DNA from: an uncultured Candidatus Saccharibacteria bacterium
GTDB taxonomy: Bacteria; Patescibacteriota; Minisyncoccia; Phycocordibacterales; UBA5272
Direction of reading: 5' to 3'
Assembly (NCBI GenBank): GCA_964452605.1
Contig: CAYVMF010000001.1
Coordinates: 1 to 32,843 of the forward strand
DNA: 32,843 nucleotides
Made by a program: the position numbers and the translations under genes. Positions within the stretch are counted from its first letter, which is position 1. Each line of letters begins with the position of its first letter. The notes under the pieces were generated by a model. It worked only from the letters and a program-made list of their open reading frames with translations. It searched no databases and was not told the DNA's origin. This document shows, piece by piece, positions 6,166 to 26,841 of the stretch.

Positions 6166-6169
6166 CGCC

Positions 6170-6358: not shown

Positions 6359-6676
6359 ATGGGAATCCTAACGTTTGTTAAGAAGTTGTTTACGCCTTCT
6401 CCGGAAACGCTCCGGCTACAGCAACAGAACGCCGACGAAGAGCTCAAGGGGAAAATCCTCTTGGTACTGGAAGACCCCTACTGTGCCACTTACCGCGGCG
6501 GGATCGTGCCTTTTGAGGTCATTCGCCATCAGCTGAGAGCGTGGCCGCTCGAGCAGATCCTTCGCATGATGAAGGAGCTCATCACGGCACGCCTCGTCCA
6601 AAGAATTGACGGCGGCAAGAGTGAAAAACCTGCCACCGAAGTTCAGTACGTCAGTTCTGCCTCCAGGCGCGACTAA
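6359..6676 (+). CDS. GC-rich orphan protein (105 aa), possibly winged-helix-like
   Basis: GGAG lies 8 nt upstream of the ATG, unlike native genes. GC is clearly above the neighbours. The central pattern KILLVLEDP....IVPFEVIRHQL..WPLEQILRMMKELITARLVQRI resembles a wHTH recognition module. Its own terminator follows. Confidence 0.6.
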   Translation: MGILTFVKKLFTPSPETLRLQQQNADEELKGKILLVLEDPYCATYRGGIVPFEVIRHQLRAWPLEQILRMMKELITARLVQRIDGGKSEKPATEVQYVSSASRRD

Positions 6677-6701
6677 GTAGTAGGCCTAACGGGCAGGTCA
6701 T

Positions 6702-6748
6702 AAACCGCCGTCAAGCGAAAAACGGAGTCGCTTCGGCGGTTTTGTTTT
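6702..6748 (+). terminator. Intrinsic terminator of the 6359 gene
   Basis: AACCGCCG...CGGCGGTT outer stem with inner AAGCGA/TCGCTT pairing, followed by TTTGTTTTG. Confidence 0.7.
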
Positions 6749-6777
6749 GCACACAAATCAAGCTGCTGGCTTGAAAA

Positions 6778-7113
6778 CTACATCTGCCTTGCTTCCATTA
6801 TTTCAATGGTTGCACCAGGAATACCAAAGTGAGGATGATCTTTAAAAAGCTCTGCTACCGCTTCAGCGGATTCCCCTTGTACGTATGATGATAGCATCAT
6901 GTCATTTTTGACATCTTCTACACCAGAAGCGCTCACTCGCTTTGTTTTCCCAAGAGCGATTGTGTTGAGAATGGTATCTTTGTGTGAAGCTGTCCACGCA
7001 TCCCACTCTGCTCTCATTTTTGCCTCAGCATCCTTACGTTCTGCTTCTGGTTTCTTCATCCATTCCTCCATACCAAGCGCTGGCGCCATGTATATAACTG
7101 TGAAATTTTTCAT
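6778..7113 (-). CDS. Small conserved-looking hypothetical protein (111 aa)
   Basis: Native composition. TGcTACACT lies 8 nt upstream of the ATG. I recognise no motif with confidence. Confidence 0.55.
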   Translation of the reverse strand: MKNFTVIYMAPALGMEEWMKKPEAERKDAEAKMRAEWDAWTASHKDTILNTIALGKTKRVSASGVEDVKNDMMLSSYVQGESAEAVAELFKDHPHFGIPGATIEIMEARQM

Positions 7114-7173
7114 ATACTTTTAGTGTAGCATGGTGGGCATGCACCTCGTGTTTAACTTAGAACCCTTCCAGAC

Positions 7174-8220
7174 TTATTTTTTGACTGCACTTATTAAGTT
7201 GGCAATGTCAGTAATAGAGACCTCTTTCTGGTTACCCTGGAGGTACCCATCATCTTGATGTGCAAATATAGTTTGAGCTATTTCTTTAACAATTGCATCT
7301 CTGTTTTCTGGCAGCTTATTATTTCTCACTAAAATATCAAAAGATTTTAGTGAGTTACTTCTATGAGTATTTAAATTATACATATGCAGGTTTGCATTGT
7401 AATTCTTTAAAACTTCTCTTATCAGAACGTATAAGAAAAATAGTACTGAGAAGCGAATAAGAAATGCAAAAATATAGTATTCCCAGTCCGCTACAGGCTC
7501 TGGTTGATTAATTTCTTTTAAGAGGGGTAAAAACCAGTAAACAAGAATCCATATACCAGCCCCAATTAAAATTAGAAACATAACACCAAAAAGTCTTGAT
7601 AGATTTCTATTTTTGACTGATTGATCTAAAAAAATAGTCCCATACTCGCTGACAGTGTCCACCAATGAAAAATCTTGGACCGACCTATTTAATTGTTCTA
7701 TATTATCTTTTACTTGAAGAATTTGTGTTAGGCCTTGGTTTAATTCACCCAATTTTTGGTCCACTTCTCCGACTTTTTGCTGAAAAGAACTCTGCGCATT
7801 ATTTACAACTTCTTGTGTTTGGTTTTTGTAGGTACTTAATGCTTCTTCTATTTTTTGTTTATGCTCCTCTCTAACGTACATCTGAAATTCAGAAATTTTT
7901 GGAGCTGTTACTGTATAAAAATCCCTTATCTCTTGGAGCAAGGCGTTGGCACGGAACTGCGTCTGTTCAACTGTCTCTCCCGTCTGTGTATTGAAAGACT
8001 GAGCCCTTGATTTTAAATCAATCAATTGAGAAAAAATTGCTTGCAGTTTTCCGGCATCTGTTGGAATAAATAAATGTATATTGTTCTCAAATTCTAATAC
8101 CAACTTACTTAGTCGTTGCAGCAAAGATGATATCTCTTCAAAAGAAGAGCTGTAGTTGCTGCCTAAATCAGTTCTTTTAAGACTTTCCCAATTAAGACTC
8201 TTAAGTGTATTAAAATCCAT
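7174..8220 (-). CDS. AT-rich island protein 1: N-terminal coiled coil (about 200 aa), 2 TM helices and a C-terminal helical domain
   Basis: 348-aa ORF, visibly more AT-rich than neighbours. TM helices LFGVMFLILIGAGIWILVYWFL and YYIFAFLIRFSVLFFLYVLI. AGAGTAGAAT lies 7 nt upstream of the ATG. The architecture recalls 2-TM effector modules (e.g. SLATT-like), but I cannot verify any family. Confidence 0.65.
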   Translation of the reverse strand: MDFNTLKSLNWESLKRTDLGSNYSSSFEEISSLLQRLSKLVLEFENNIHLFIPTDAGKLQAIFSQLIDLKSRAQSFNTQTGETVEQTQFRANALLQEIRDFYTVTAPKISEFQMYVREEHKQKIEEALSTYKNQTQEVVNNAQSSFQQKVGEVDQKLGELNQGLTQILQVKDNIEQLNRSVQDFSLVDTVSEYGTIFLDQSVKNRNLSRLFGVMFLILIGAGIWILVYWFLPLLKEINQPEPVADWEYYIFAFLIRFSVLFFLYVLIREVLKNYNANLHMYNLNTHRSNSLKSFDILVRNNKLPENRDAIVKEIAQTIFAHQDDGYLQGNQKEVSITDIANLISAVKK

Positions 8221-8315
8221 TCACTTCATTCTACTCTCTTTGTCAAATAAATCCAGCAACCCCCTATACCTATTAAACACGTAAAAGGGGCCATACACAA
8301 AGAGCCGTGTACTGA

Positions 8316-8594
8316 CTCTTTGAAGATCTAATTGAACAACTTCAAAAACTTTTAGACGAGTTTGATTTATATCAGATAGGAATGAAAGAAAAGATAGAAA
8401 GCGAGGTTAGAAGGTTTAAACATTTTCAAAGAGGAGTTTTAGGTATTAAGGATAAAATTGAGATCGGAGATGTAGATATACGCAACTATGCAAAATACAT
8501 ACTCAGGGAGGGTAAGGACTCAGAGAAGAGAGACCTCATGCAGTCATTTAAAAGTAAGCTGATACTTTTAAATAAGAGAATAGTTCTCGAATGA
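8316..8594 (+). pseudogene. Possible C-terminal remnant of a (large serine) recombinase
   Basis: The 70-aa ORF from 8382 stays open in frame upstream to a stop at 8313-8315 (LFEDLIEQLQKLLDEFDLYQIG-MKEKIESEV...). The tail DIRNYAKYILREGKDSEKRDLMQSFKSKLILLNKRIVLE resembles recombinase-family C-termini as I recall them. No catalytic domain is present. Recollection only, not verified. Confidence 0.25.
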
Positions 8595-8595
8595 A

Positions 8596-9837
8596 TTATT
8601 TATGTTCAGTAAGTGGCTCGTGTTCTTCATGGAGAATTTCCCCGGTTTCGGAGTTCTTAACTACTTGATGGTATTCGTTTTTTTCTTTGTTAACATCCAT
8701 ATAATAATCAACACCTTCCCTTAATTTTTTGTCGCCACTAGATTTCCAGCCTTGCACTATAGTCCTTACTCGTCCAAAGCCAAGTCTGTTCAATTTGGTT
8801 TTAAGTAACTCCTTAATAGTGATTTTTTCCTTTAAGCTTATTCCATTCCAGCTATGTCCACATGTAAATTTAAACATAAAGGAATCATTAAGAATCTCTG
8901 CTTCATAGACTTCTATGGGGTTTTTACATGTACTGCAAATCCCGCTTTTTGTAGACAGGAGATAGTTTTCATACTCTTCGGACATTGATTGAGGCTGGGC
9001 TTCCTTTAGTTTTTGAGTAATTATTTCTGTTAGCTTTTCCTTGTTAACTATCATTTCTTTAATCTTTTCTTTATCGAGACTTACAACCAAACCTTCCGAT
9101 GTTAGAACTTTGTATTCTGGGCCCAGTGTTCTTCGAATTGGTTTTTTGTAATCAAAGTACTTAGAGAGTAATTCATTATGCGCTAAAACCATAAAGTCAT
9201 GTATATAGATACCTATGGTTTGACTAGCATCTCTGATCTCCGTGATGAGTTTTTCAATTTCAGCCCTGTCCCATTTTCTCCAATCATGCCCATGAACATG
9301 TGTACAGCTTTGTAACTCTTGCGATGCGGCATAGACCTTTTCTCTTAGAATATCGGTCTCTTTTGCAAGTGTCTCCTGAGCTTTTATTAATGGGGAGATA
9401 GCAGATATCCAGCCACTAAAAATATATGACATGCCTATATATTGATTGGTAAATGCAAAATAGTCACTAAATACTTTTTTTGTGAACTCTGACCACTTTC
9501 TCTCACCGTCTAATAAGCATTCTATTTCAGAGGTTGGCACAAAAATATCACCATGTTTTTTAGGGATCTTTAACTCGTAGGCAATCATACATGAGTCCAT
9601 AAGAATTAAAGGTGCTGCTGTTGCACCTAAAGTATTTAATCTATCTTGTGTATCTTTGGCTGCTTTTAAAAGCTCTTTATATATATCGTATTGAACTTGT
9701 ATTCTATGCTCATGTTTAGCATTACTCCTTTGGATGAGTAATGCTATTATCCAACCAACAATGGCAATGAAGATCGTAGCAATAAGCGTTAGCTGGTCTA
9801 CGCTGGAAAAGTCTATCCGAGAAGCAATATTAATCAT
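8596..9837 (-). CDS. AT-rich island protein 2: N-terminal TM anchor, large helical domain, C-terminal zinc-ribbon-like module
   Basis: 413-aa ORF. TM helix LTLIATIFIAIVGWIIALLI. CxxC...CGH cluster (CSTCKNPIEV...FKFTCGH). AGAGTAGAAT lies 6 nt upstream of the ATG, the same decamer as at gene 7174-8220. Confidence 0.65.
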   Translation of the reverse strand: MINIASRIDFSSVDQLTLIATIFIAIVGWIIALLIQRSNAKHEHRIQVQYDIYKELLKAAKDTQDRLNTLGATAAPLILMDSCMIAYELKIPKKHGDIFVPTSEIECLLDGERKWSEFTKKVFSDYFAFTNQYIGMSYIFSGWISAISPLIKAQETLAKETDILREKVYAASQELQSCTHVHGHDWRKWDRAEIEKLITEIRDASQTIGIYIHDFMVLAHNELLSKYFDYKKPIRRTLGPEYKVLTSEGLVVSLDKEKIKEMIVNKEKLTEIITQKLKEAQPQSMSEEYENYLLSTKSGICSTCKNPIEVYEAEILNDSFMFKFTCGHSWNGISLKEKITIKELLKTKLNRLGFGRVRTIVQGWKSSGDKKLREGVDYYMDVNKEKNEYHQVVKNSETGEILHEEHEPLTEHK

Positions 9838-9938
9838 TTCCTAATTCTACTCTATAAAGATACTTTTGACCCATATAGGTCTTAAAGTACGTTTATTTAC
9901 AAAGCTGGGTTGTTAGGACAGTGACTCGTGTCCAACTA

Positions 9939-9961
9939 TCTACACCCGCTAGGACTCGAAC
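9939..9961 (-). pseudogene. Isolated tRNA 3'-end fragment (T-loop, 3' T-stem and acceptor 3' strand)
   Basis: The minus strand reads GTTCGAGTCCTAGCGGGTGTAGA. That is a canonical GTTCGAGTC T-loop, then 5 nt of T-stem, a 7-nt acceptor strand and a discriminator. No matching 5' acceptor strand or D/anticodon arms lie upstream. It differs from the 3' ends of both intact tRNAs in the window. Confidence 0.35.
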
Positions 9962-10015
9962 TTTTTTAACCGTTACAAATCAACCATGTCTGGTCTATAT
10001 GTACGAAAATTCCAT

Positions 10016-10089
10016 TGGCTGGGGTACAAGGGCTCGAACCTCGATTAACAGTTCCAGAAACTGCTGTCCTACCATTAGACGATACCCCA
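10016..10089 (-). tRNA. tRNA-Gln (anticodon CUG)
   Basis: I folded it by hand. Acceptor TGGGGTA/TACCCCA (U1:A72, typical of bacterial tRNA-Gln). D-arm GTCT-AATGGTA-GGAC. Anticodon arm GCAGT-TTCTGGA-ACTGT. T-arm CGAGG-TTCGAGC-CCTTG. Discriminator G and an encoded CCA. Confidence 0.9.
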
Positions 10090-10123
10090 TTCGTTGGTAA
10101 CTTCAAGAAAGTTACTGATTGCA

Positions 10124-10132
10124 ATACTAGCA
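10124..10132 (-). promoter_or_regulatory. Candidate extended -10 promoter for tRNA-Gln
   Basis: The minus strand reads TGCTAGTAT about 35 nt upstream of the tRNA 5' end. Confidence 0.35.
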
Positions 10133-10165
10133 TTTTCGTACTCTTTTCTCAACAGATATACATAC

Positions 10166-10195
10166 AACAAAAGCGAGGAACCTCCTCGCTTTTGT
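10166..10195. terminator. Intrinsic terminator downstream of the GC-rich lipoprotein gene
   Basis: ACAAAAGCGAGGA-ACC-TCCTCGCTTTTGT: 13-nt perfect arms with flanking A/T tracts. Confidence 0.8.
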
Positions 10196-10203
10196 ATGCG
10201 ACC

Positions 10204-10797
10204 TTAGCCGCACACTTTTCCAGGTCGCCACTTTTCGCGCGGCAACCATTCCCAATACCGGGAATCCATCCTGTGGAATTGCCCCACAAATGCGTGGAGA
10301 ATTTCGTGAGCAGATGTACCCCTGTCCTCCTTTCCTTGCCTATCAACGTATGTCGGGATGTAAATAACTCCACAATACCCGTCCCCTTCAAACAAATATC
10401 CCAACCGGCCGCATTCAGACAGGCACAGTACCTGATGCGGAGACAATTTTGTTTTTGAAACTTCAAATTGTCGCTGCGCAACCTGATGTGGGACTTGAAG
10501 CGGATAAAAGTTGAGGCGCTTGACCCCCTGCTCCACCTCTGCGAACCCTTTACCTTGGCGAGCTTGAACGCAAAGATGCAACTGGTCGTTAACTCCTTTG
10601 TCTACAGCTTCTTTGGTAAACCGCATATAGATGTTGCACACACCTTTTGTGTCGAGATACCCAACACCCTCTTTGTCATGAAGACGGATAGAGAGCGAAA
10701 AAGCTGGATTATTGACCCACTCGGGCAGCAGCATAGAAGCACATCCCGACAAAAGTAGCGTAGCGAAAGCTACCACAGTCAAAAGAAATCTGGTCAT
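10204..10797 (-). CDS. GC-rich orphan lipoprotein with an HExxH zinc-metallopeptidase-like motif
   Basis: 197-aa ORF. Signal peptide with lipobox (LLLSGC). C-terminal AHEILHAFVGQFH has HExxH plus a third His 7 residues later. A G-rich SD (AGGGGG) lies about 6 nt upstream of the ATG. GC is about 50% against about 40% in the flanks. Confidence 0.65.
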   Translation of the reverse strand: MTRFLLTVVAFATLLLSGCASMLLPEWVNNPAFSLSIRLHDKEGVGYLDTKGVCNIYMRFTKEAVDKGVNDQLHLCVQARQGKGFAEVEQGVKRLNFYPLQVPHQVAQRQFEVSKTKLSPHQVLCLSECGRLGYLFEGDGYCGVIYIPTYVDRQGKEDRGTSAHEILHAFVGQFHRMDSRYWEWLPREKWRPGKVCG

Positions 10798-10823
10798 GAG
10801 AACCCCCTAAAGAACATAGCCCT

Positions 10824-10829
10824 ATTATA
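10824..10829 (-). promoter_or_regulatory. -10 box (TATAAT) for the 10204-10797 gene
   Basis: The minus strand reads TAGAGTATAATAGGGC, 26 nt upstream of the ATG. I found no convincing -35. Confidence 0.4.
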
Positions 10830-10869
10830 CTCTATTTACAACACTAGAATATTGTGGTTTTTACTTAGT

Positions 10870-12525
10870 TTAGAGAACAAGTCTCACCAGTCTCAGCTGA
10901 TTATACGTATACGCTTCTTTAAGATGTTCAAACACGGGTGCTAGTTTTTTCGTGTCCATTTCTTTAAATCCTTTCTTTATCGCAGTCATATCTTTTTTCG
11001 CAGGAAGAATGTGCTCAATCTCTACGTCTTCACCCATCTCTACTAGTTTTTCAATGTGTCCGACTATTGTGTCTTCAGATATGCCACGCTCTGTAGCTAT
11101 TTCCTTTATACTTTTTCCAAGCTTAAGCATTTCCTGAGTTACTGCATGTGATGGCGCTTTTTCTTGTATCTCATCTGCCTCTTCATCGTCTAACTCCTCT
11201 ACACTTCCATGTCGCTCAAGCAGCCATTTCTCTTGAAGTACTCTGAGGTCTTTTTCTTCGTATTTTGCTACTGCATATTCTGCCTGATCGCTCTTGGCAC
11301 GAAAGTGAATATCTGCTTCACGAACCTCTTCAGCAACGGAAAGCGCCTGTGGGTTGAAGCCTTTTAAATTAAGCCCCTCAAGCGACTTAAGTCGAGAAAG
11401 CGCTACATACCCCTGCCCTGATGCAAAGGCACGACTGAGGTCAATTTCAGCCCTCTCGAGGGTCATTCCTTGGCTCTTGTGAACAGTGATAGCCCAGGCG
11501 AGTTTTAATGGAAGCTGAGAGATTTCAGCGCGAACTTTTCCATCCTCTTCGATACGCCATGTTTCTGCTTTAATGGTTACTCGTTTACCAGATGCCAATT
11601 CCACAACTGGTGCTTTGTCGCTTTCAAAAGCGACTATTTTACCCATAGAACCGTTTACGTATTTACGTTCAGCGTCGTTCTTTATACAAATTACTTTGGC
11701 GCCAATCTTTAGCTCCAAAATCTCATCTGCTAAGCAGTTATTTTTAAGTGATGCGAGTACTTGCCCTTTTCCTCTAGTCACCATTGTGTAGCGATACACC
11801 TCTCCCTCTAGTTTGGTAAAGGCTTGTCTGTTTATTTCATCTACGTTTTCGTTGTGCGTGTAGAGCTTAATATGATCTTCTGTATGCTTTTTAGTAAACG
11901 TCTCTTGAAGCGCGAGGAAGTGCTCTTCTTCGACTTCACCGCTACGTATCGCATTTAAAATATTTGTAAGTGTATCGTCATCCTGGCGGTACTGGTCTGT
12001 TAAATAACAAACCACGGGCTTCGCTTCTTTCCATGCACGTGAAGTAAATGCAAAGACGTCTTTGTTTTCGTAGGTGTCGTTATTCTTTACTACCGGCGGT
12101 AGCTGAAAAAAATCTCCCGTGAATACCACTTGCAGCCCACCGAATGGTTTGTCGTTTCGGCGTATGTGCTTACCGACTTTATCTAGCATGTCCACAAAAG
12201 AAGCGTGCAGCATAGATATCTCATCGATGATGAGCACTTGGGTTTCATTCCAGCGTTTATACAGTGTGGGCTTTTCTTCTATTGCATCTAGGTCGTACGG
12301 AGTGAGTTGCTGCTTAATACCGATACCACTCCACGCGTGGATGGTCGTACCACCTATGTGCGTTGATGCGATACCAGTAGAAGCAGTCACTGCGTAGCGT
12401 ACTCCATGCTTTTTTAAATAGGTAGTGTACTCACGAAGTGCGTATGATTTACCCGCTCCAGCAGCCCCAGTGAGAAACGTCGTATGACCTAATTTAAGAA
12501 TAGATAGCGCAGTAGCCTGAGTCAT
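10870..12525 (-). CDS. Pif1/RecD-family (SF1B) ATP-dependent DNA helicase with a C-terminal helix-turn-helix domain
   Basis: 551-aa ORF. Walker A GAAGAGKSY, Walker B LIIDEISM, motifs GDFFQLPPV and TVHKSQG. C-terminal HTH SIKEIATERGISEDTIVGHIEKLV. Confidence 0.85.
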   Translation of the reverse strand: MTQATALSILKLGHTTFLTGAAGAGKSYALREYTTYLKKHGVRYAVTASTGIASTHIGGTTIHAWSGIGIKQQLTPYDLDAIEEKPTLYKRWNETQVLIIDEISMLHASFVDMLDKVGKHIRRNDKPFGGLQVVFTGDFFQLPPVVKNNDTYENKDVFAFTSRAWKEAKPVVCYLTDQYRQDDDTLTNILNAIRSGEVEEEHFLALQETFTKKHTEDHIKLYTHNENVDEINRQAFTKLEGEVYRYTMVTRGKGQVLASLKNNCLADEILELKIGAKVICIKNDAERKYVNGSMGKIVAFESDKAPVVELASGKRVTIKAETWRIEEDGKVRAEISQLPLKLAWAITVHKSQGMTLERAEIDLSRAFASGQGYVALSRLKSLEGLNLKGFNPQALSVAEEVREADIHFRAKSDQAEYAVAKYEEKDLRVLQEKWLLERHGSVEELDDEEADEIQEKAPSHAVTQEMLKLGKSIKEIATERGISEDTIVGHIEKLVEMGEDVEIEHILPAKKDMTAIKKGFKEMDTKKLAPVFEHLKEAYTYNQLRLVRLVL

Positions 12526-12603
12526 GATTATGCAGTATATCAGGCGGAATTAAGTACAGCTGTTGATAGTAGAACGATTGTTCTTATTTTTTTATTTTTC
12601 GTA

Positions 12604-12612
12604 TGCTAGAAT
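12604..12612 (+). promoter_or_regulatory. Extended -10 promoter (TGcTAGAAT) for the GC-rich gene at 12647
   Basis: TGCTAGAAT lies 34 nt upstream of the ATG. The leader contains AAGGCAAGG as an SD-like element. Confidence 0.45.
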
Positions 12613-12646
12613 GACGCTTGAAAGTAACAACTTGAAAGGCAAGGCC

Positions 12647-13090
12647 ATGGAAACACTTGATTCTTACGCGACGGAGCGGCGGGAGAGAAAGGGTCTTCTT
12701 TTCCACTCCCCCTGCGCCACCTGTGGCTGTTGCATCGACGACCACATCGAACCGGACCGGTACGGCATTACCGATGAAGTAGCGAAACTGATGGGGAACG
12801 GAAGATGTTCTCTGTTTTCCTGCAAAGGGTTCAAGGTGCGTAAAAGCGACTTGAAACACATCGTGTACGTGTGCGCTCGGCGACTTTTCTTTGGCGAGCG
12901 GCAGGCGGAAGATTTCTGGGAGCACCCAGGTGTCAAAGAAGCCGCGCAAAAGCTTCTAGAAGAGAAGCTAGCTGAGTGGGAAGAAACCGAAAGCAAAGTT
13001 AACAAGTGGTGCGCCAATTACGGCTCAGTCATGATGATCGGTCTCACACGTGATGGCAGATCAGTAGCATTTAATATTGGGACAGCGTAA
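12647..13090 (+). CDS. GC-rich orphan Cys-rich (putative zinc-binding) protein, 147 aa
   Basis: I prefer the ATG at 12647 (SD-like AAGG upstream) over the track's TTG at 12563. Cys cluster CATCGCCIDDH...CSLFSCKGF. Acidic helical segment KLLEEKLAEWEETESK. GC is clearly above the flanks. Terminator follows. Confidence 0.6.
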   Translation: METLDSYATERRERKGLLFHSPCATCGCCIDDHIEPDRYGITDEVAKLMGNGRCSLFSCKGFKVRKSDLKHIVYVCARRLFFGERQAEDFWEHPGVKEAAQKLLEEKLAEWEETESKVNKWCANYGSVMMIGLTRDGRSVAFNIGTA

Positions 13091-13109
13091 CTGCGCCAAT
13101 ACATACTAC

Positions 13110-13140
13110 AAAAAAGCGTAACCAGGGGTTACGCTTTTTT
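13110..13140. terminator. Bidirectional intrinsic terminator (12647 gene / ftsX, convergent)
   Basis: AAAAAAGCGTAACC-AGG-GGTTACGCTTTTTT: 14-nt perfect arms. Confidence 0.85.
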
Positions 13141-13155
13141 GCTTCTTAACTAAGA

Positions 13156-14088: not shown

Positions 14089-14100
14089 ATCTATAAGAAG

Positions 14101-18742: not shown

Positions 18743-18760
18743 ATAATAAGTATACACCAT

Positions 18761-18786: not shown

Positions 18787-18792
18787 CAACAA

Positions 18793-19809: not shown

Positions 19810-19897
19810 GCTAGTGAGTATACCAATTTCATTACCCTGGAACTAAATTGATATCTTCACTCAAATTAGCTAGAATAGAGCGACTGTTTTTACATTA

Positions 19898-19970: not shown

Positions 19971-19976
19971 CACGAA

Positions 19977-20006
19977 ACAAAAAAGACCCGTACGGGTCTT
20001 TTTTGT
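19977..20006. terminator. Bidirectional intrinsic terminator (tRNA-Thr / 645-aa gene, convergent)
   Basis: ACAAAAAAGACCCG-TA-CGGGTCTTTTTTGT: 14-nt perfect arms. Confidence 0.85.
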
Positions 20007-20020
20007 TGTATTAGATTTAA

Positions 20021-21958
20021 CTATCTAGTAACACACGCTCCCCAAAGTCCTGGGTTTGCGTTATCACATCCACCACCTACCGTACATGTGGCAACCTGAG
20101 AACCATATGTACTTGCGATACTAGCATTACACGCAGCTTCACCCATACCGTTTACGAAATTACGCGTAACAGGATTCGTTACTGTAAGCTGAGTAACCCC
20201 TGACCACACACTACACCCAACAACGTTACATGCTTGTACAGAAATAAGGTGCACACCCGCTGTTAAACCAAGAGAGGCTGGTGTGCCAGTCCATGTCGTA
20301 TTCGTCCCTTGAGGTAGTTCTGTACTATTAAGTCTAATTGTGTATCTTGTTGGTCCGTTATTTCCTGACCATGAAGCAGAGAAGTTTTCTGATGTAGACA
20401 CAGTCGTTTGACTAAGTGTTAACTGTGCAGTTGTTGGCGGTGTCTGACTTACAGTTGGAGTCTGAGTAGACTGACTTGTAGACTGAGCACTTGAATCAAC
20501 ACAAGCTCCCCAACTATATGGATTCGCAGAGGCACAGCTAGCCCCTGGTCGACCGCACGCCACTCCACAACCTCCACCCATACTACAAGTCGCGACTTGA
20601 GAACCGAAACGGCTCACAATATCTGCGTTACAAGCAGCTTGTCCGGCACCGTTTACGAAGTTGAAAAGAGAAGTTGATTGTGTACCATCGGTAACACTAA
20701 TAGTTTTTTCTGCAGAACCTGTTCCTGCACCATTAGTACACTCGACTCTATATACAGTAGTGATTGTTGGAGCAACCACTCGTCCATCTGTCCCAAGCAC
20801 AACCTCACTACCGCCTGTGCGGAGATTACGTGCAATACAGCTTGTAGGACTGTTTGTAGTAGACCAGGTAATTGTCGTTGACTGTCCGGATGAAATGATC
20901 ATCGGACTTGCTGTGATAGAAATTACCGGAAGTGATACAGTAGCAGTACTTACTGTAATTGTTTTGTCTGCAAAACCAGTCCCTGATGCGTTTGAACATT
21001 CAATTCTGTATGTAGTCGTCTGAGTTGGAGCAACCACTCGTCCGTCTGTTCCAAGCACCGTCTCACTTCCGCCTGTGCGGAGATTACGCGCAATACAACT
21101 TGTAGGAGTGTTTGTACTAGACCAGGTAATCGTAACTGATTGACCACTAGTAGTAACTTCGCGATCTGCGATGACGGTAAGTACCGGTGCACTACCTGTG
21201 GTTGTAGTAGATGTTCTGTTTACAGGGAAAGTACCAGTTTCAGCAATAACTTGTCCGCTGCTGTTGAGAATACGAATACGATATGTACCATTTGCTATGT
21301 CGTTCCCAAGCGTAATAGTAAACGTATTTGACCCAGCAGAGAGTGCTGCAGTTTGAGACATTTGCTGACTCGTACCCACGTTAAAGATTGTGAGAGTTGT
21401 ACCAGAAGGAATATTTGAATACTGTCCACTTAGACTGTTCGAAGAAAGATTCGTAATGTATACCGAACCCGTGCTAGATGTACCTCCAGTTGTCGGACAT
21501 ACGAACTGACAATTCGGTCCTGTACGCCCAACAGATGTTCCGTTAGGACAAATCATCGCATCCTGAGTACACATAACTCCAGAACCACCACCTGATACAC
21601 CGCCAGCACATACACGTGCAATAGCAGCGCGTGTCATAGAACCTGCGATACCAAATGTAGGAAGGGATTGATCTCTCTGGAAATCAATAACTGCCTGAAC
21701 AGTCATCCCAGCATAACGCCCAGTCGGCTGCTCGATATCAAGATAGCTACGCTCAATGAGGAAACGCTGTAGCTGAGATACCTGTCCGCTCGTAGACGCG
21801 TCAGTTGATCCACGCTGCATGGTAATAGAGAGCGATGGACAGTAGCCCGCTCGTGCTACTGATGTTCCTGTTCCGTAGTCGTCTGCAAGTTGTGCAGAAG
21901 CGTACACCACTGAAGCTAGTATAAGTCCAACTGAAATAATTCCTTTTAATTTGTTCAT
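20021..21958 (-). CDS. Secreted multidomain cell-surface protein: PG-binding domain, Ig-like repeats and two copies of a Cys-rich module
   Basis: 645-aa ORF with a signal peptide. PG_binding_1-like segment LQRFLIERSYL...AVIDFQRDQSLPTFGIAG. Two 86-aa tandem repeats. Two copies of the Cys-rich module FVNG.G.AACNA.I.S..GSQVATC..GGGC...NP..WGACV. Confidence 0.75.
   Translation of the reverse strand: MNKLKGIISVGLILASVVYASAQLADDYGTGTSVARAGYCPSLSITMQRGSTDASTSGQVSQLQRFLIERSYLDIEQPTGRYAGMTVQAVIDFQRDQSLPTFGIAGSMTRAAIARVCAGGVSGGGSGVMCTQDAMICPNGTSVGRTGPNCQFVCPTTGGTSSTGSVYITNLSSNSLSGQYSNIPSGTTLTIFNVGTSQQMSQTAALSAGSNTFTITLGNDIANGTYRIRILNSSGQVIAETGTFPVNRTSTTTTGSAPVLTVIADREVTTSGQSVTITWSSTNTPTSCIARNLRTGGSETVLGTDGRVVAPTQTTTYRIECSNASGTGFADKTITVSTATVSLPVISITASPMIISSGQSTTITWSTTNSPTSCIARNLRTGGSEVVLGTDGRVVAPTITTVYRVECTNGAGTGSAEKTISVTDGTQSTSLFNFVNGAGQAACNADIVSRFGSQVATCSMGGGCGVACGRPGASCASANPYSWGACVDSSAQSTSQSTQTPTVSQTPPTTAQLTLSQTTVSTSENFSASWSGNNGPTRYTIRLNSTELPQGTNTTWTGTPASLGLTAGVHLISVQACNVVGCSVWSGVTQLTVTNPVTRNFVNGMGEAACNASIASTYGSQVATCTVGGGCDNANPGLWGACVTR
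20690..21190 (-). repeat. Tandem 258-nt (86-aa) intragenic repeat, 2 copies
   Basis: ccgcctgtgcggagattacg occurs at both 20811 and 21069, an offset of exactly 258 nt. By eye the core is about 90% identical at the nucleotide level. The protein copies share TITWS.TN.PTSCIARNLRTGGSE.VLGTDGRVVAPT. Confidence 0.85.
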
Positions 21959-22063
21959 AATGATAAGTAAGTACTAGTATCCCTGTATACGGATATACCT
22001 TATATGGTACCACGCAGAAAACGCTTATTTTCTAAAACAAGCTGGTAATCCCCATAAAAACAC

Positions 22064-22747
22064 TTACTTAGCTATCTTTTTCCCAATTATGTTTTCTTTT
22101 TTTGCTCGATATTCTTCAATCAACTTGTGATTTCCAGATAAAAGTACTTTAGGAACACGATACTTCTTTCCTTTGTATTCATACACTTCAGGTCGAGCAT
22201 ATATCTCATGAGATGCCATACGCTTCTCTTCAAGCGACAACTCGTCATTTAAAACACCTTTGATCTGTCTTGAAATAGCATCTATACACACCATCGCAGG
22301 AAGTTCTCCACCTGTAAGAACATAGTTCCCAATACTCCATTCTTTTGCTTTAAGGATTTTCCTTACACGTTCATCAATCCCCTCGTAACGGCCACAAATG
22401 AAAATAACATCTGTATACTTCTTTGCAACGTTCTGCGCAAGTGTGTTTGTAAATAGTTCGCCTCCAGCATTAAAAATAACCACAAGCGTTTTAGTATTCT
22501 TTCTCTTGTCGATTTTCTTCTGTACCTTCTCGACACACTTAATGAGTGGATCAACCCACATCACCATGCCAGGACCTCCGCCATATGGGCGACCATCAAC
22601 GCGACGATGTTTATCGGTTGTGTAGTCTCGAAGTGCGTAGGTATTAATTTCTATTAACTTTCCTTCAATTGCACGCGAAATAATAGACTCAGCAAAATAT
22701 GAGTCAAACATCCCCGGGAAAATAGTTACGATATGGTAACGAATCAT
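22064..22747 (-). CDS. trmD: tRNA (guanine37-N1)-methyltransferase TrmD
   Basis: 227-aa ORF. The pattern IVTIFP.MF...........I......L.I....LRDYT.DKHR.VDG.PYGGG.GMV, then GRYEGIDER and SIGNYVLTGGELPA. Confidence 0.9.
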   Translation of the reverse strand: MIRYHIVTIFPGMFDSYFAESIISRAIEGKLIEINTYALRDYTTDKHRRVDGRPYGGGPGMVMWVDPLIKCVEKVQKKIDKRKNTKTLVVIFNAGGELFTNTLAQNVAKKYTDVIFICGRYEGIDERVRKILKAKEWSIGNYVLTGGELPAMVCIDAISRQIKGVLNDELSLEEKRMASHEIYARPEVYEYKGKKYRVPKVLLSGNHKLIEEYRAKKENIIGKKIAK

Positions 22748-22777
22748 GATACTTGACAGTATATCAAATATAATGTC

Positions 22778-22811
22778 AAAAGAAAAGCCGCTCCAGAGCG
22801 GCTTTTCTTTT
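22778..22811. terminator. Intrinsic terminator/attenuator between the KH gene and trmD
   Basis: AAAAGAAAAGCCGCT-CCAG-AGCGGCTTTTCTTTT: 15-nt perfect arms. Confidence 0.8.
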
Positions 22812-22823
22812 TAGACTATTTTA

Positions 22824-23141
22824 TTACAGAGACTTCAAGTCATTCATGACGGCATCTACATCTGTAGTGTCGTAAGTAGCTGGAGTATATCCTTCTCGGC
22901 CCGCTGGTTCGTTTATTTTCAAATTAACACGTGCGTTATTTTTCATTCCAACTACACGCAAAAGCGTACGGAGTGCTTTTGCTGTCGCCCCGTCGCGACC
23001 AATGATTTTACCCATATCTTCCCCTGCAACATCAAGAGTGATCAATACGCCCATTTCGTCTACTCGTCGTTCAACTTTTACTTGATCCGGATTATCTACT
23101 AATGCTTTAACAACATATTCAACAAATTCTTGGTCTTTCAT
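22824..23141 (-). CDS. KH-domain RNA-binding protein (KhpA/YlqC-like) with a C-terminal extension
   Basis: I prefer the ATG at 23141 (MKDQEFVEYVVKALVDNPDQVKVE...). GKIIGRDGATAKALRTLL is the KH GxxG motif. It holds the conserved position between rpsP and trmD. Confidence 0.8.
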   Translation of the reverse strand: MKDQEFVEYVVKALVDNPDQVKVERRVDEMGVLITLDVAGEDMGKIIGRDGATAKALRTLLRVVGMKNNARVNLKINEPAGREGYTPATYDTTDVDAVMNDLKSL

Positions 23142-23259
23142 ATTCTTTATGTATATCTTTATCGTAACAGTGATTTCGGTAATTTCTGGAAACTTATACA
23201 CAATCTAACACATGTATTGCCAAAAAGTAATACATCAACTAGAGCCCTTAACCACCCTT

Positions 23260-23303
23260 CACAAAACAAAAAAAGATGCTTTCGCATCTTTTTTTGTTTT
23301 GTG
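23260..23303. terminator. Weak-stem, long-arm palindrome between rpsP and the KH gene (attenuator/terminator)
   Basis: CACAAAACAAAAAAAGATGC-TTTC-GCATCTTTTTTTGTTTTGTG: 20-nt perfect arms, but only a 5-bp GC-containing core. Confidence 0.55.
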
Positions 23304-23312
23304 TAAATATAT

Positions 23313-23612
23313 TTACGCAGCTTTTTCTTCTTTCTTCTGTGGAGATTTCTTTGGAAGAACGTTTACTTTCTTTCCTTCGATAACACCCTTTGAAATAAGA
23401 AGGTTGTGTACTGTTGGTGTAATCTGAGCACCGACAGACATCCAGTGCTTCACGCGGTCAGCCTTAGCTTCGAAAATACCAGCCTTCACATTATATGTTC
23501 CAACGATCTCAGTGAACTGAGATGTCTTTGGCTTAAGTGTACTTTCGGTAACAATAAGACGGAAATGTGGGTCGTTCTTGCGTCCTGTACGTTGTAGTCT
23601 GATTTTTAACAT
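23313..23612 (-). CDS. rpsP: 30S ribosomal protein S16
   Basis: MLKIRLQRTGRKNDPHFRLIV... is the canonical bS16 N-terminus, here with a Lys-rich C-terminal tail. TGgTAGAAT (23620-23628) lies 7 nt upstream of the ATG. Confidence 0.92.
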   Translation of the reverse strand: MLKIRLQRTGRKNDPHFRLIVTESTLKPKTSQFTEIVGTYNVKAGIFEAKADRVKHWMSVGAQITPTVHNLLISKGVIEGKKVNVLPKKSPQKKEEKAA

Positions 23613-23644
23613 GTGCTGTATTCTACCATAAATCCTTTAAATAT

Positions 23645-23676
23645 GCAAAACAAAAGAGCCGACTACATGAGCCGGC
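23645..23676 (-). terminator. Intrinsic terminator of the GC-rich two-gene operon
   Basis: The minus strand reads GCCGGCT-CATGT-AGTCGGC followed by TCTTTTGTTTT. It ends about 20 nt before the rpsP -10 box. Confidence 0.7.
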
Positions 23677-23702
23677 CCTTTCTTTCCCCGTCCGGGAAAA
23701 AA

Positions 23703-24017
23703 TCACAGAACGGGAGAATGAAGCTGTTGGAGGATGAGGAACCCGCAAAGCAAGGTAAACCCCCACCCCCCTTGCCACAGCCTGGCAAACAGAGGACGCT
23801 TGCTGAACAGTCCGCCCAGCCACCCGATAACGCAGCTGGCGATACCCAACATGCCACCCAGAATGAAGAGGGTGTTCAAGTCCAGAGACTTGAACCGACC
23901 TAGTCCAAAGACGGCTGCGACCACCGCGATGGCAAGGATGAGTCCGGCTGCGAGCTGCCACGAGGGCTCAAACTTGAACATTTCTGCCAAGTCGATTTTG
24001 ATGCACCTGGGCTTCAT
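23703..24017 (-). CDS. GC-rich orphan small membrane protein 2 (104 aa, about 3 TM)
   Basis: This is the internal ATG at 24017 of the 204-aa track ORF. It overlaps the upstream stop as ATGA (24014-24017). Sequence MKPRCIKIDLAEMFKFEPSWQLAAGLILAIAVVAAVFGL...LFILGGMLGIASCVIGWLGGLF...GWGFTLLCGFLIL. The first 100 codons of the track ORF are Arg/Gly-rich out-of-frame-looking sequence. Confidence 0.6.
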   Translation of the reverse strand: MKPRCIKIDLAEMFKFEPSWQLAAGLILAIAVVAAVFGLGRFKSLDLNTLFILGGMLGIASCVIGWLGGLFSKRPLFARLWQGGWGFTLLCGFLILQQLHSPVL

Positions 24018-24310
24018 GGCCGCACCGGCGGCGTCAGGTTGCCGGACATCAGGTCGGGGTTGACGGCGCACATCAACAGCACGAGCCCCATGATGCTGAG
24101 GATTGCCCCAAAAAACTCGCAGAACTCCGCGAAGTTCTTTTCCTGGGCCTCCTCGAAACACGAATAGCGAGTTGTGTCGTAGACACCTTCCCTCAGGAGT
24201 ATCAACTCCCACGTCATTTTGACCACAGTGGACATAGTGAAACCGCCACACAGGACGGAACCCACACCCACCACCACCGTCGTGGCGACGTCCGGCACAA
24301 TGAAATTCAT
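24014..24310 (-). CDS. GC-rich orphan small membrane protein 1 (98 aa, 2 TM)
   Basis: GGAGG lies 7 nt upstream of the ATG. TM helices VATTVVVGVGSVLCGGFTM and FGAILSIMGLVLLMCAV flank an acidic, Cys-containing loop (YSCFEEAQEKNFAEFCEFF). Confidence 0.65.
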   Translation of the reverse strand: MNFIVPDVATTVVVGVGSVLCGGFTMSTVVKMTWELILLREGVYDTTRYSCFEEAQEKNFAEFCEFFGAILSIMGLVLLMCAVNPDLMSGNLTPPVRP

Positions 24311-24329
24311 GACACACCTCCAGTAAAAT

Positions 24330-24345
24330 GAGGGGAAATCCCCTC
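24330..24345 (-). promoter_or_regulatory. Palindrome/hairpin in the 5' leader of the GC-rich operon
   Basis: GAGGGG-AAAT-CCCCTC lies between the predicted transcription start site (TSS, about 24365) and the SD. It could be an operator or an RNA hairpin. Confidence 0.4.
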
Positions 24346-24364
24346 GGTTGTTAAAGAAAACTCC

Positions 24365-24401
24365 AGCCTTTATTATAACACATAATAAAGGCTTTTGTCA
24401 A
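24365..24401 (-). promoter_or_regulatory. Consensus sigma70 promoter (TTGACA-18-TATAAT) overlapping the rnr terminator hairpin
   Basis: The minus strand has TTGACA at 24401-24396 and TATAAT at 24377-24372. The -10 and spacer lie inside a perfect 12-bp-arm hairpin, AGCCTTTATTAT-GTGTT-ATAATAAAGGCT (24365-24393), which sits directly after the rnr stop. Confidence 0.6.
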
Positions 24402-24414
24402 GTATCCTTTCTTT

Positions 24415-26355
24415 CTAAGCAACTAAAGAATAGTCGATTACGCGCAGGTCTAGGTTAGCGTTTTTTACTTTTATTTTTACTGGTGTACCAATTTTCCATT
24501 CAGTCCCTGTTCTCTCCCCTATGATTCTTCCACCCTTCTGGTCAAAATTATAAAAGTCATCTCCCAAATCACGAAGTTTAATCATACCTTCACATTTACT
24601 TGTTTTTTCTTCAACGTACACACCCCATTCTGTTACCCCAGAAACCATACCTTCAAATTCCTGTCCGACACGGTATGACATGTACTCAACTTGTTTGTAT
24701 TTGATACTTCCACGCTCAGCATCTGAGGCTTCTTTTTCACGACGGCTCGCCTTCTGACAAAGTGATTCGTAGAGACCTCGCTCTTCTTCCTTTGGAAAAT
24801 CTTTATCCAGGATACGCATTAATAGTCTGTGCGTAAGCACATCCGGATAGCGACGAATTGGACTTGTGAAATGTGAGTAGTACTCAAACGCGAGACCGTA
24901 GTGACCAACGTTTTTAGTGCTGTACACCGCTTTTGCCATGGCACGAGTGATATGCACCTGAAGAAGCTGCTTCTCTGGGCGGTCTGCCATTTTTTCTAGA
25001 AGGTTATTTAAATCTTGTGAAGGAATGAGTCCGTCCATAAAACGCACAGTAAAACCAAGTCCACGGATATACAAATCCAAATCATGCATCTTGTCTGCGT
25101 CCGGCTTATCGTGAATACGATAAATACAAATACTCTTTCCTTCGCCTTGAGCTTTTTCTTGTTCTTGTGTGATAAATTTACTTACATACTTGTTCGCCAA
25201 GAGCATGTACTCTTCGATCATTTTGTTGGTATCGCCGCGCACTTTTATGTACACGTCAATTGGTACACCGTGCTCATCGAGCTTAAATTTAACTTCGTCT
25301 GTTTCAAGAGAGAGTGCGCCGTTTGCAAAACGTGCTTTGTTTAATTTCTTTGCGATGCCGTTTAAAATAGCGAGCTCTTCGTGAAAATCTCCAGCGCCAG
25401 TATCAAGGGTAACTTGAGCATCTTCGTATGAGTAACGACGCTGTGAGTTAATAACCGCGCGACCGTACCATTCATTGTGAACCACACCATCACTGTCCAG
25501 TTCAAGCACACATGACATCACGAGGCGGTCTTCACCCTGTACAAGAGAACAGAGGTCGTTAGAAAGTACCTCTGGAAGCATTGGAAGTACACGATCTACG
25601 AGATACACAGATGTCTCACGAGAGACAGCTTCGTCATCTAGTGCCATACCTGGTTTTACATAATACGACACATCTGCAATATGAATACCAACTTCGAAAC
25701 GTCCATTGTCTAACTTTTGGAAAGAAATAGCATCGTCAAAATCCTTTGCGTCGATTGGGTCAATCGTAAACGTAGTGATACCTCTAAAGTCTCGGCGTCC
25801 CGCCTTATCTTCTTCTGTGATACCTCGTGCCTTAATTGTATTTGCTTCTGCATTTACCGCTTCATCATGTTCATCACTAAAACCACGCTCAAACGCAAAC
25901 GCAAGCATTTCAGCATCGTTTTCTCCAGGGCGGCCGAGGATCGTCATCACATGACCTCGTGGTGATTTCTTGTGATCTGACCAATCTGTAATAGATGCAA
26001 TGATTTTCATTCCTGGCTCTGCACCGTTAAGATAATTATGGTCAATTAAAATATCCGTATACATGCGCTTATCCTGCGGTACCAGGAAGTACATTCCATT
26101 GTCTTCTTCAAGAACTCCTGCGTATCCTTTACGTCCACGTTCAATGATACGAATCACCTTTCCATAGAGTTCGTCTTCGCCTTTTGCGTTTTGTTTTTTA
26201 CCAAGGAGTTCTACCTCGACTGTGTCTTGGTGGAGCGCTGTGTGTAAATGGCTGTGGTCAACAAAAATAGCACCTTCGTGCTCAAGCTCTGCGACACGCA
26301 CGTACCCATCCTTTTTTGATGTGATACTAATAGTTCCTGTGTAGACTCTTTCCAT
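24415..26355 (-). CDS. rnr: Ribonuclease R (RNB-family 3'-5' exoribonuclease with a C-terminal S1 domain)
   Basis: RNB motifs (TIDPIDAKDFDDAIS, YLVDRVLPMLPE, FTSPIRRYPD) and a C-terminal S1-like segment (GMVSGVTEWGVYVEE). I prefer the ATG at 26355 because TGcTATAGT lies 10 nt upstream of it. The track GTG at 26367 lies inside that -10. Confidence 0.9.
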   Translation of the reverse strand: MERVYTGTISITSKKDGYVRVAELEHEGAIFVDHSHLHTALHQDTVEVELLGKKQNAKGEDELYGKVIRIIERGRKGYAGVLEEDNGMYFLVPQDKRMYTDILIDHNYLNGAEPGMKIIASITDWSDHKKSPRGHVMTILGRPGENDAEMLAFAFERGFSDEHDEAVNAEANTIKARGITEEDKAGRRDFRGITTFTIDPIDAKDFDDAISFQKLDNGRFEVGIHIADVSYYVKPGMALDDEAVSRETSVYLVDRVLPMLPEVLSNDLCSLVQGEDRLVMSCVLELDSDGVVHNEWYGRAVINSQRRYSYEDAQVTLDTGAGDFHEELAILNGIAKKLNKARFANGALSLETDEVKFKLDEHGVPIDVYIKVRGDTNKMIEEYMLLANKYVSKFITQEQEKAQGEGKSICIYRIHDKPDADKMHDLDLYIRGLGFTVRFMDGLIPSQDLNNLLEKMADRPEKQLLQVHITRAMAKAVYSTKNVGHYGLAFEYYSHFTSPIRRYPDVLTHRLLMRILDKDFPKEEERGLYESLCQKASRREKEASDAERGSIKYKQVEYMSYRVGQEFEGMVSGVTEWGVYVEEKTSKCEGMIKLRDLGDDFYNFDQKGGRIIGERTGTEWKIGTPVKIKVKNANLDLRVIDYSLVA

Positions 26356-26466
26356 AATTCCCTTCACTATAGCATATTTTGATAGCGCCGGGAAAAGTGA
26401 TAGTCTTAGCCATTAGAACAGTTCCTCTGTTCACGTTTTCGAACCACAACCAACCTGGGGAATCAC

Positions 26467-26784
26467 ATGATACACGTTTCCGTTCATATCAATTCGTCCA
26501 TCGACCTGAAGACAGGGAGAACGCTCCTGGCTTTAATCAAGACCTACTTTGACGAAGTGTCGCAAGAAGACGGGCGCCCCGGACCCAGTGAGATCCAGCA
26601 GACCGTACATGGTCCAGGAGACAACTTCGAAAGAGCGGTCTCAATCCGCATCCTGACAGACAACAGGAATTGGGTGCTGAGACGACACGGCCAAAGTTTC
26701 ATTGGCCGCATCATCAAAGAGCTGCCCCTCCTTAAAGGGCAGTTGAGTATGTGGATTGTCGAAGCAGATCACACCTTCGGCTAA
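26467..26784 (+). CDS. GC-rich orphan protein (105 aa), unknown function
   Basis: GGGGA lies 7 nt upstream of the ATG. GC is above the flanks. No TM segment and no motif I recognise. Its own terminator follows. Confidence 0.55.
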   Translation: MIHVSVHINSSIDLKTGRTLLALIKTYFDEVSQEDGRPGPSEIQQTVHGPGDNFERAVSIRILTDNRNWVLRRHGQSFIGRIIKELPLLKGQLSMWIVEADHTFG

Positions 26785-26803
26785 CAGCCACCGGCTGCCC
26801 ACG

Positions 26804-26830
26804 AAATCCGCCCCGCCAGGCGGATTTTCT
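26804..26830 (+). terminator. Intrinsic terminator of the 26467 gene
   Basis: AAATCCGCC-CCGCCA-GGCGGATTT followed by TCT. The T-run is part of the stem's 3' flank. Confidence 0.7.
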
Positions 26831-26841
26831 ACTTCCTATTT

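Follow-up and report, generated by a model that had tools for sequence, protein, structure and literature searches.

How do five short, GC-rich gene units come to lie in separate gaps between the housekeeping genes of a bacterial genome that is otherwise much poorer in GC, and what keeps them different from their neighbours? The question is raised by a 32,843-nt stretch of contig CAYVMF010000001.1 (GenBank assembly GCA_964452605.1, from an uncultured Candidatus Saccharibacteria bacterium), called the window below, whose GC content is 42.5%. Its near relatives, all assembled from metagenomes, go by the names Paceibacterota, Parcubacteria, Nomurabacteria or, where classification was automatic, Saccharibacteria; they place the window in a bacterium of the candidate phyla radiation (CPR, Patescibacteria), and their loci are cited by L numbers. 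The five units, cassettes A to E, carry six genes and are flanked by genes for a DUF5680 protein, tRNA-Gln, Pif1, FtsX, ribosomal protein S16, RNase R and SMC. We consider the cassettes to be, on balance, gene-transfer hotspots that lack mobile-element genes and whose content is exchanged chiefly through homologous recombination between members of a clade heterogeneous in GC content. The best-supported reading of the slots is that they are hotspots of the kind described by Oliveira and colleagues, shrunk to single-gene units resembling phage morons in a very small genome.

Composition, translation starts and coding potential of the cassettes

The five intervals have a GC content of 0.48–0.54, against 0.417 for the window outside them, and the excess is concentrated at synonymous sites. 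GC content at third codon positions (GC3) is 0.67 in A, 0.49 in B, 0.58 in C, 0.78 and 0.71 in the two genes of D (D1 and D2) and 0.63 in E, versus 0.35 ± 0.03 (range 0.27–0.41) in the 29 native genes (z = 4.6–14; Mann-Whitney p = 7e-5). At four-fold degenerate sites the native genes have A.34, C.12, G.16 and T.38, and the cassette genes A.16, C.31, G.31 and T.22, so that G and C are both enriched. The codons CGG, CTG and GCC, nearly unused by native genes, are common in the cassettes, whose codon adaptation to native usage gives z scores of −3.3 to −7.1. Spurious antisense open reading frames (ORFs) are stacked within the same intervals.

The two sets of genes also start differently. A motif resembling a Shine-Dalgarno (SD) sequence lies 5–8 nt 5′ of the ATG in five of the six cassette genes, the sixth (D2) overlapping D1 by ATGA; no native gene of the 29 has one. 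In most of the latter, a TGnTAnAAT-type −10 box precedes the ATG by 6–10 nt, and because this spacing is combined with the lack of an SD motif, native mRNAs are probably leaderless. A survey of 52 loci (462 ORFs, crudely called, with start-codon errors acting as noise in both directions) points to a wider association: GC3 was more than 0.12 above the locus median in 20 of 62 SD-class genes versus 6 of 234 leaderless-class genes (odds ratio 18, p = 1e-10). Literature searches on leaderless or SD usage in the CPR returned no account of such a pattern, and there is apparently no earlier description of a genome in which translation-initiation mode, codon composition and evolutionary rate go together. 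Among the native genes, the operon-internal atpC and atpD (29916–31724) have neither an upstream SD motif nor a −10 box.

Each interval forms a transcription unit of its own: a native-type promoter candidate leads into a short SD-bearing leader, the coding part follows and a terminator-like hairpin closes the unit. A scan for terminators and promoters called one promoter, that of D, together with the terminators of C and of D and a part of that of A; the rest of the A terminator, the B and E terminators and the −10 candidates other than that of D were read directly from the letters.

Cassette A (6259–6781, plus strand), a segment missing from the sister strain L116, has a −10 candidate TAGAGT at about 6321–6326, an SD motif GGAG at about 6349–6352, an ORF of 105 aa (6359–6676) and a terminator hairpin (6702–6749). 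Direct sequence comparison shows it to be bounded by the two copies of an imperfect direct repeat (13/14 nt), GCTTGGAGAACTAC on the left (6245–6258) and GCTTGAAAACTAC on the right (6769–6781). Cassette B (10165–10832, minus strand) comprises a TATAAT −10 box within 10821–10832, a 25-nt leader with AGGGGG, an ORF of 197 aa (10204–10797) and a terminator (10165–10193). In cassette C (12602–13140, plus strand), the −10 box TGCTAGAAT (within 12602–12616) is followed by a leader with AAAGG/AAGG, an ORF of 147 aa (12647–13090) and a hairpin terminator (13110–13140) that also serves the convergent ftsX. The two-gene cassette D (23646–24401, minus strand) has a consensus promoter, TTGACA-18-TATAAT (24372–24401), and, between this and the SD motif GGAGG, a GC-rich leader hairpin GAGGGGATTTCCCCTC followed by ATTTTAC (24330–24345); D1 (24014–24310; 98 aa, two predicted transmembrane segments) and D2 (23703–24017; 104 aa, about three segments) precede a terminator at 23646–23682. 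Cassette E (26396–26829, plus strand) consists of an extended −10 candidate TGATAGTCT (within 26396–26411), a leader with GGGGA, an ORF of 105 aa (26467–26784) and a hairpin with a weak T-tract (26804–26829).

Promoters and leaders are AT-rich (GC 0.35–0.39 for A–D) and conserved, and both divergence and GC-richness end sharply at the boundaries of the coding sequences (CDSs). In D, the hairpin of the leader hints at a conserved element for attenuation or protein binding; L028 has another sequence at the position of this hairpin, also with a hairpin and a T-run. The ftsX/C hairpin stem (13110–13140) differs by compensatory changes from the ftsX terminator of strains without C (cgtaacc...ggttacg versus gacgcgacc...ggtcgcgtc), so the exchange of the cassette seems to have included the terminator.

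By their coding signatures, the five intervals hold genuine small protein genes. Their composition shows codon-position periodicity, with GC3 far above GC2 in the called frame. In comparisons that are diverged enough, the ratio of nonsynonymous to synonymous divergence (dN/dS) is 0.14–0.38, versus 0.003–0.04 for neighbouring genes; on these estimates the cassette proteins evolve 10–20 times faster than their neighbours, still under purifying selection. The orthologous CDSs of D and E in the sister genome L027 keep their lengths without indels, and the promoter/leader segments are 96–98% identical. The same proteins are called by independent pipelines in four data sources, and the exact A protein is present in other assemblies.

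It is scarcely credible, in view of these signatures, that the intervals are products of chimeric assembly or structured non-coding RNAs rich in GC. In an AT-rich genome, a GC-rich intergenic island is a classic mark of structured RNA, and a real LOOT RNA lies beside A, but no Rfam match falls inside any cassette; this and the clear coding signals, to which confident protein models can be added, rule out non-coding RNA. An assembly artefact, which the preliminary description had allowed for, is excluded because the same cassettes occur at the same junctions in independent NCBI, JGI, ENA and Logan assemblies and because relatives have empty sites.

The six proteins are orphans confined to one group. 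None matches a family in Pfam, NCBIfam, PADLOC or PHROGs; tblastn against phage and plasmid collections gave nothing, nor did viral-contig scans with D1 and B, and a metagenome scan with a four-sequence C-family alignment recovered no relatives. An exhaustive phmmer search against 1.84 billion cluster representatives returned only 25 matches (A 5, B 8, C 8, D1 2, D2 1, E 1), and every match whose contig was inspected came from a related CPR genome of Paceibacteria type. Neither these representatives nor a word-index search yielded a homologue beyond the clade. As judged by similarity searching, the cassette families are found only within Paceibacteria-type CPR genomes.

The predicted functions are heterogeneous and unproven: a metalloprotease-like HExxH lipoprotein, a small Zn-ribbon-like protein, a pair of small membrane proteins and two soluble proteins. 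The putative lipoprotein, B, carries the lipobox LLSGC, its HExxHxxxGxFH motif is invariant and four of its Cys are conserved; the C protein has conserved CxxC...DDH...C residues, and D1 and D2 were judged to be membrane proteins from their hydrophobic segments. AlphaFold2 models, built on alignments of only 9–12 sequences, reached a predicted local distance difference test score (pLDDT) of 83 and a predicted template-modelling score of 0.79 for B and a pLDDT of 79 for C, and fold searches with the B model in the PDB and with the C model in PDB and viral structures gave no match (best E about 0.4–0.9). Cell-surface or conflict-related accessory roles are a guess. A C-family profile compared with PDB sequences gave a marginal match to the zinc-finger region of yeast Rqt4 (E = 2e-3), a subunit of the ribosome-quality-control trigger complex; a shared Zn-binding motif is the most that we read into it.

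Variable slots and probable recombination among relatives

Some relative has an empty counterpart of each of the five sites, so the inserts are optional. Cassette A is absent from L116, where the neighbouring protein is identical and the empty site holds a single copy of the repeat that bounds the insert. Site B is empty in L003 and L009, with tRNA-Gln 60–90 bp after Pif1, and site C in L008 and in L015–L020, the latter with flanking proteins 99–100% identical to those of the window. Empty D sites occur in L008, L010, L041 and L042 (gap 69–170 bp) and empty E sites in L003, L009 and L034 (gap 35–115 bp). At the C-less sites of L015–L020, about 490 bp of the window correspond to about 55 bp, which indicates replacement rather than clean excision (L016).

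Occupied slots may also hold something else. The D site of L003, L009, L034 and L037 carries an SD-led ORF of about 76–100 aa for a Cys-rich product, and the C site of L001, L002 and L004 carries SD-led membrane-protein genes of 123–127 aa. Among relatives, then, a slot is empty, holds the gene seen in the window or a divergent allele of it, or is taken by a small gene unrelated to it. A sixth slot, empty in the window (an 18-bp gap, 5422–5441), lies between the DUF5680 gene and a gene resembling 3-demethylubiquinone methyltransferase; in L116 (5254–5583) and L117 (1551–1880) it is filled by an SD-led gene of 109 aa with GC3 0.54.

Cassettes come and go independently of one another: B is present without C in L015/L016, D1 is paired with an unrelated second gene in L011, and a B homologue occurs without A in L116. 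They are therefore not an obligate functional set, and the dispersed functional set envisaged in the preliminary description finds no support in the relatives. Its descriptive statements fared better: the five compositionally distinct intervals with their stacked antisense ORFs, the non-native starts, the self-contained expression units, the orphan products, the named flanking genes and the optional occupancy all reappear in the present analysis. So does the lack of mobile-element genes alongside the cassettes: the ORFs scanned in the window included neither integrase nor transposase, and the remaining ORFs are annotated via homologous loci. A match to an ISNCY transposase in an unrelated low-GC gene (22 bits; cut-off 325 bits) was treated as noise.

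Comparison with L027, which shares the gene order of the window, shows how unevenly the region has diverged. Synonymous divergence (dS) is 0.58 for D2, 1.19 for D1 and 0.83 for E (dN/dS 0.30, 0.38 and 0.26), 0.64 for rnr and 0.89 for smc (dN/dS 0.017 and 0.030), and 0.05, 0.16 and 0.24 for rpsP, trmD and bacA, respectively. Protein identity is 47–74% for D1, D2 and E, and 96–100% for their neighbours. Because dS in the cassettes is like that of the flanks, these low identities stem from rapid change in the proteins, not from a difference in age, and allele replacement as their sole cause is ruled out.

Other pairs also carry possible signs of exchange. Against L011, D1 has a dS of 0.03 and the adjacent rnr one of 0.35, and D2 is replaced by an unrelated membrane protein of 109 aa. 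Eight aligned D-locus sequences share a conserved promoter, while D1 comes in at least three allele types, one of them with another leader, and the second gene in two; these are variously combined, with the joins at conserved points (the promoter, the overlap of D1 with D2, the terminator). Cassette B is 88% identical in L002 (Pif1 79%) but 53% identical in L001 (Pif1 95%). The dS mosaic (0.05–0.89 along 10 kb), the discordant identities of cassettes and flanks and the shuffled D alleles would all fit recombination.

Members of a cassette family may also sit at an altogether different site. In GCA_007375595.1 (L023), rplB and rpsS of the S10 ribosomal-protein operon are separated by an insert of about 1.8 kb (5878–7699), which holds a C homologue (43% identity) and an 82-aa ORF and is also present in L024–L026. 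The two tandem cassettes of L023 are each preceded by an identical module of about 80 nt comprising promoter, leader, SD motif and the first three codons. Further small ORFs lie in the S10–L3 and L5–S14 gaps of this operon, the one next to S14 being of 150 aa with GC3 0.60.

Known systems and competing explanations

Hotspots of horizontal gene transfer that lack mobile-element genes and are flanked by recombining core genes have been described (Oliveira, Touchon, Cury & Rocha 2017, PMC5635113). The cassette intervals resemble them in lying between conserved core genes, in the rapid turnover of their content, in the absence of integrase and transposase and perhaps in homologous recombination in their flanks. 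Unlike those hotspots, each slot holds one gene or a pair of genes (0.4–0.8 kb), five slots fall within 20 kb of a genome that is likely smaller than 1 Mb, and one cassette family has a member inside a ribosomal-protein operon. The cassettes also depart from the core in translation-initiation mode and by 0.15–0.4 in GC3, and they are the GC-richer partner; acquired genes are usually AT-richer than the core.

Phage morons, defined by their own promoter and terminator and by a GC content that differs from that of their neighbours ('The moron comes of age', PMC3594210; Juhala/Hendrix), offer a second parallel. The cassettes too are units with their own promoter and terminator, of deviant GC content and variable presence, placed between two conserved genes. 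Their flanks, however, are cellular housekeeping genes, and they have no match in PHROGs, phage records or viral contigs.

Integron cassettes are comparable in being small, mostly single-gene, rich in orphans, variably present and ended by a hairpin; unlike these promoterless units, which are arrayed and carry attC sites for IntI, the present cassettes are dispersed and have promoters of their own. Inspected by eye, with no dedicated attC model run, their 3′ hairpins are short near-perfect stems with T-runs and no conserved core, and the window holds no IntI integrase and no array, only dispersed single units. Nor do the cassettes resemble a tRNA-linked island or integrative element: there is no integrase, only A has a direct repeat, and only B adjoins a tRNA gene, on the side toward Pif1, the tRNA itself being conserved in relatives. 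As for insertion sequences or miniature inverted-repeat transposable elements, the ends of A are not inverted repeats, the cassette flanks have no sequence in common and a transposase is lacking. A diversity-generating retroelement finds no counterpart either, as the window has no reverse-transcriptase gene (a template repeat was not specifically searched for) and cassette divergence spans whole CDSs and all base types, unlike the targets of such elements, in which adenine-specific changes are confined to a variable region of roughly 100 bp.

Replacement-type islands and hypervariable allelic loci, such as O-antigen loci, agr and the comCD specificity groups, are exchanged via conserved flanks. 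The D locus is similar in having diverged or unrelated alleles shuffled between a conserved promoter and terminator, but its modules are tiny membrane proteins, and neither paralogous silent copies nor regulatory partners were seen. Like bacterial ORFans, the cassette genes are short, taxonomically restricted and fast-evolving. The ORFans of Escherichia coli, which Daubin and Ochman are said to have described in 2004, are reportedly AT-rich relative to their genome and thought to be phage-derived; the cassette genes, unlike them, are GC-rich and have no phage link.

Under the hotspot reading, turnover would proceed mainly through homologous recombination, with flanking genes, promoter/leader segments and terminators serving as recombination handles, and new occupancies would arise from occasional illegitimate or microhomology insertion. 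The likely source of the GC-rich cassettes would be the clade itself. The fetched loci have GC contents of 0.26–0.55, and because native GC3 among the relatives spans about 0.25–0.70, cassettes can flow between GC-rich and AT-rich members. In L033, where native GC3 is 0.67–0.70, C (GC3 0.71) lies between Pif1 and ftsX and is compositionally ordinary, so base composition must be very labile within the clade; C is SD-led there too, and the L033 Pif1 gene, whose product is 76% identical to that of the window, is leaderless. The high GC3 of the window cassettes has two candidate explanations, a stay in GC-rich relatives followed by recent import or a force acting in place. Its decay might be slowed by GC-biased gene conversion at recombination hot spots or by selection tied to SD-dependent expression.

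Several observations weigh against this account. The L027 orthologues have GC3 values of 0.72 (D1), 0.79 (D2) and 0.62 (E), and the L032 D1 one of 0.71; a neutral two-state model with an equilibrium GC3 of 0.35 would require an ancestral GC3 above 1 across the D and E dS range of 0.58–1.19, so residence in an AT-biased genome is not the whole story. The directions of substitution are ambiguous, with a parsimony bias visible in native controls (172 strong-to-weak versus 237 weak-to-strong), and at such divergence this bias makes counts difficult to interpret. The sole GC-rich carrier is L033, for C only and on a 1.5-kb contig, and none was found for A, B, D or E. Homologous recombination cannot explain the C homologue between rplB and rpsS or the direct repeat around A. 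Use of the predicted SD motifs would, moreover, presuppose an anti-SD in the 16S rRNA, a motif detected in only 48% of Parcubacteria (PMC9297842), and the fetched loci include no 16S rRNA 3′ end in which to seek it.

In one rival, the GC3 excess is held in place without any import: a leaderless, AT-rich core class of genes would coexist with an SD-translated, GC-rich, fast-evolving class, kept apart by selection (on mRNA structure or stability, slow decoding or fewer near-stop codons) or by GC-biased gene conversion. We regard this as possible, though rather unlikely. It would account for undecayed GC3 in orthologues at dS 0.6–1.2 and for the failure of the neutral model, for the association of SD status with GC3 excess across loci, for a C gene that is SD-led even in GC-rich L033 beside a leaderless Pif1, and for GC-richness and divergence that stop at the CDS ends next to AT-rich, conserved promoters and leaders. 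The polarised third-position changes cut both ways: those of B are balanced at a GC3 of about 0.5 (57 strong-to-weak versus 51 weak-to-strong, no net loss), but in C and D the GC-losing changes prevail by 3:1 (64 versus 21, a net loss). In L035/L036, whose RNase R is 79% identical, the D gap holds small SD-led ORFs with GC3 of about 0.47–0.56 against a native 0.27, a similar excess on another compositional background that lends this rival some further support; one was judged by eye to be possibly a D2-like membrane ORF, but tblastn with D2 found no match there at E ≤ 1e-5, leaving its homology unconfirmed. Other SD-led gap ORFs, for example in L039 and L034, show no excess, and the symmetric gain of G and C, CGG, CTG and GCC included, resembles a background composition rather than translational selection. 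Effects of gene conversion in bacteria are reportedly far smaller than a shift of 0.3–0.4 in GC3, which we also count against maintenance in place.

The preliminary description had listed, among its possibilities, repeated acquisition from a GC-richer partner organism such as an episymbiont's host, and this proposal is not supported. Recent independent imports from a donor outside the clade, bringing its SD motifs and codon usage along, would explain the atypical codons, the presence/absence polymorphism of C and A among near-identical strains and a net GC loss in C and D that fits decay toward host composition. They are nonetheless very unlikely: the searches yielded no homologue beyond the clade, all inspected contexts are related CPR genomes, native-type promoter candidates lie beside the CDSs (that of D conserved between strains), D and E have orthologues at their own sites whose dS resembles that of the flanks and whose GC3 is undecayed, and C is compositionally native in a clade member. 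An insertion mechanism not yet recognised had been suggested as well, and we find it doubtful. A site-specific or template-driven process, with its recombinase encoded elsewhere and the 5′ modules and 3′ hairpins as recognition sites, would suit the repeat that bounds A and its single copy at the empty site, the identical modules of the L023 tandem, the occurrence of the C family at no fewer than two unrelated sites and the fixed junctions of the D alleles. Positive evidence was not obtained, however: attC sites and terminal inverted repeats were not found, nor was a recombinase within the window, and the five units have no common boundary sequence (pairwise z scores of the flanks are mostly below 3, the two exceptions being a promoter-like stretch and a T-tract). 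The hairpins look like plain terminators with T-runs, the loss of C in L016 is a replacement, and every supporting feature can come from ordinary homologous or illegitimate recombination. An unlikely but more far-reaching picture is a two-tier CPR genome, in which a leaderless, AT-rich core is accompanied by a separately maintained set of small genes, hypervariable, GC-rich and translated from SD motifs, that occupy intergenic slots even within a ribosomal-protein operon and are driven not by ordinary gene transfer but by an intrinsic process (a cassette-exchange system acting on promoter/leader modules, or strong GC-biased conversion).

If the two-tier picture were true, two initiation modes would let the cell regulate its accessory tier as a block, and the anti-SD retained in Parcubacteria might serve mainly that tier (compare the 48% figure, PMC9297842). 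Whatever the origin of the cassettes, strain variation is poorly known in the tiny genomes of CPR bacteria (Patescibacteria), and the window shows that much of it can sit in single-gene slots that vary between essential genes without any mobile-element machinery. Should the link between SD motifs and GC3 extend genome-wide, it would supply a simple sequence rule for recognising a flexible, probably host- or phage-facing gene set, and a test case for how base composition is kept up (decay, biased gene conversion or selection).

A LOOT RNA and a possible tRNA-linked variable island

Two features near cassettes A and B are of separate interest. Between the DUF5680 gene and cassette A, positions 6083–6197 of the minus strand match the Rfam LOOT RNA over its full length (78 bits; gathering score 46). 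A TATAAT box stands some 27 nt upstream on that strand (around 6222–6227), and the LOOT sequence is also visible in L116 and L117. A near-identical stretch of about 22 nt, ACAATATTCnAGTTGTTGTAnAAT, occurs in the LOOT promoter region (6204–6227) and again just upstream of the −10 box of cassette B (10833–10856); the local alignment of the pair has z = 6.1, and the stretch may be a shared operator or a chance similarity.

On the far side of tRNA-Gln (10016–10089), three genes without assigned function (7174–9837) have an unusually low GC content (0.34–0.36). The region looks like a second, tRNA-linked variable island whose compositional sign is opposite to that of the cassettes. Near relatives have wholly different genes at this position: a copper-resistance cluster in L015/L017, and an RNA ligase, a NUDIX gene and orphan genes in L116.

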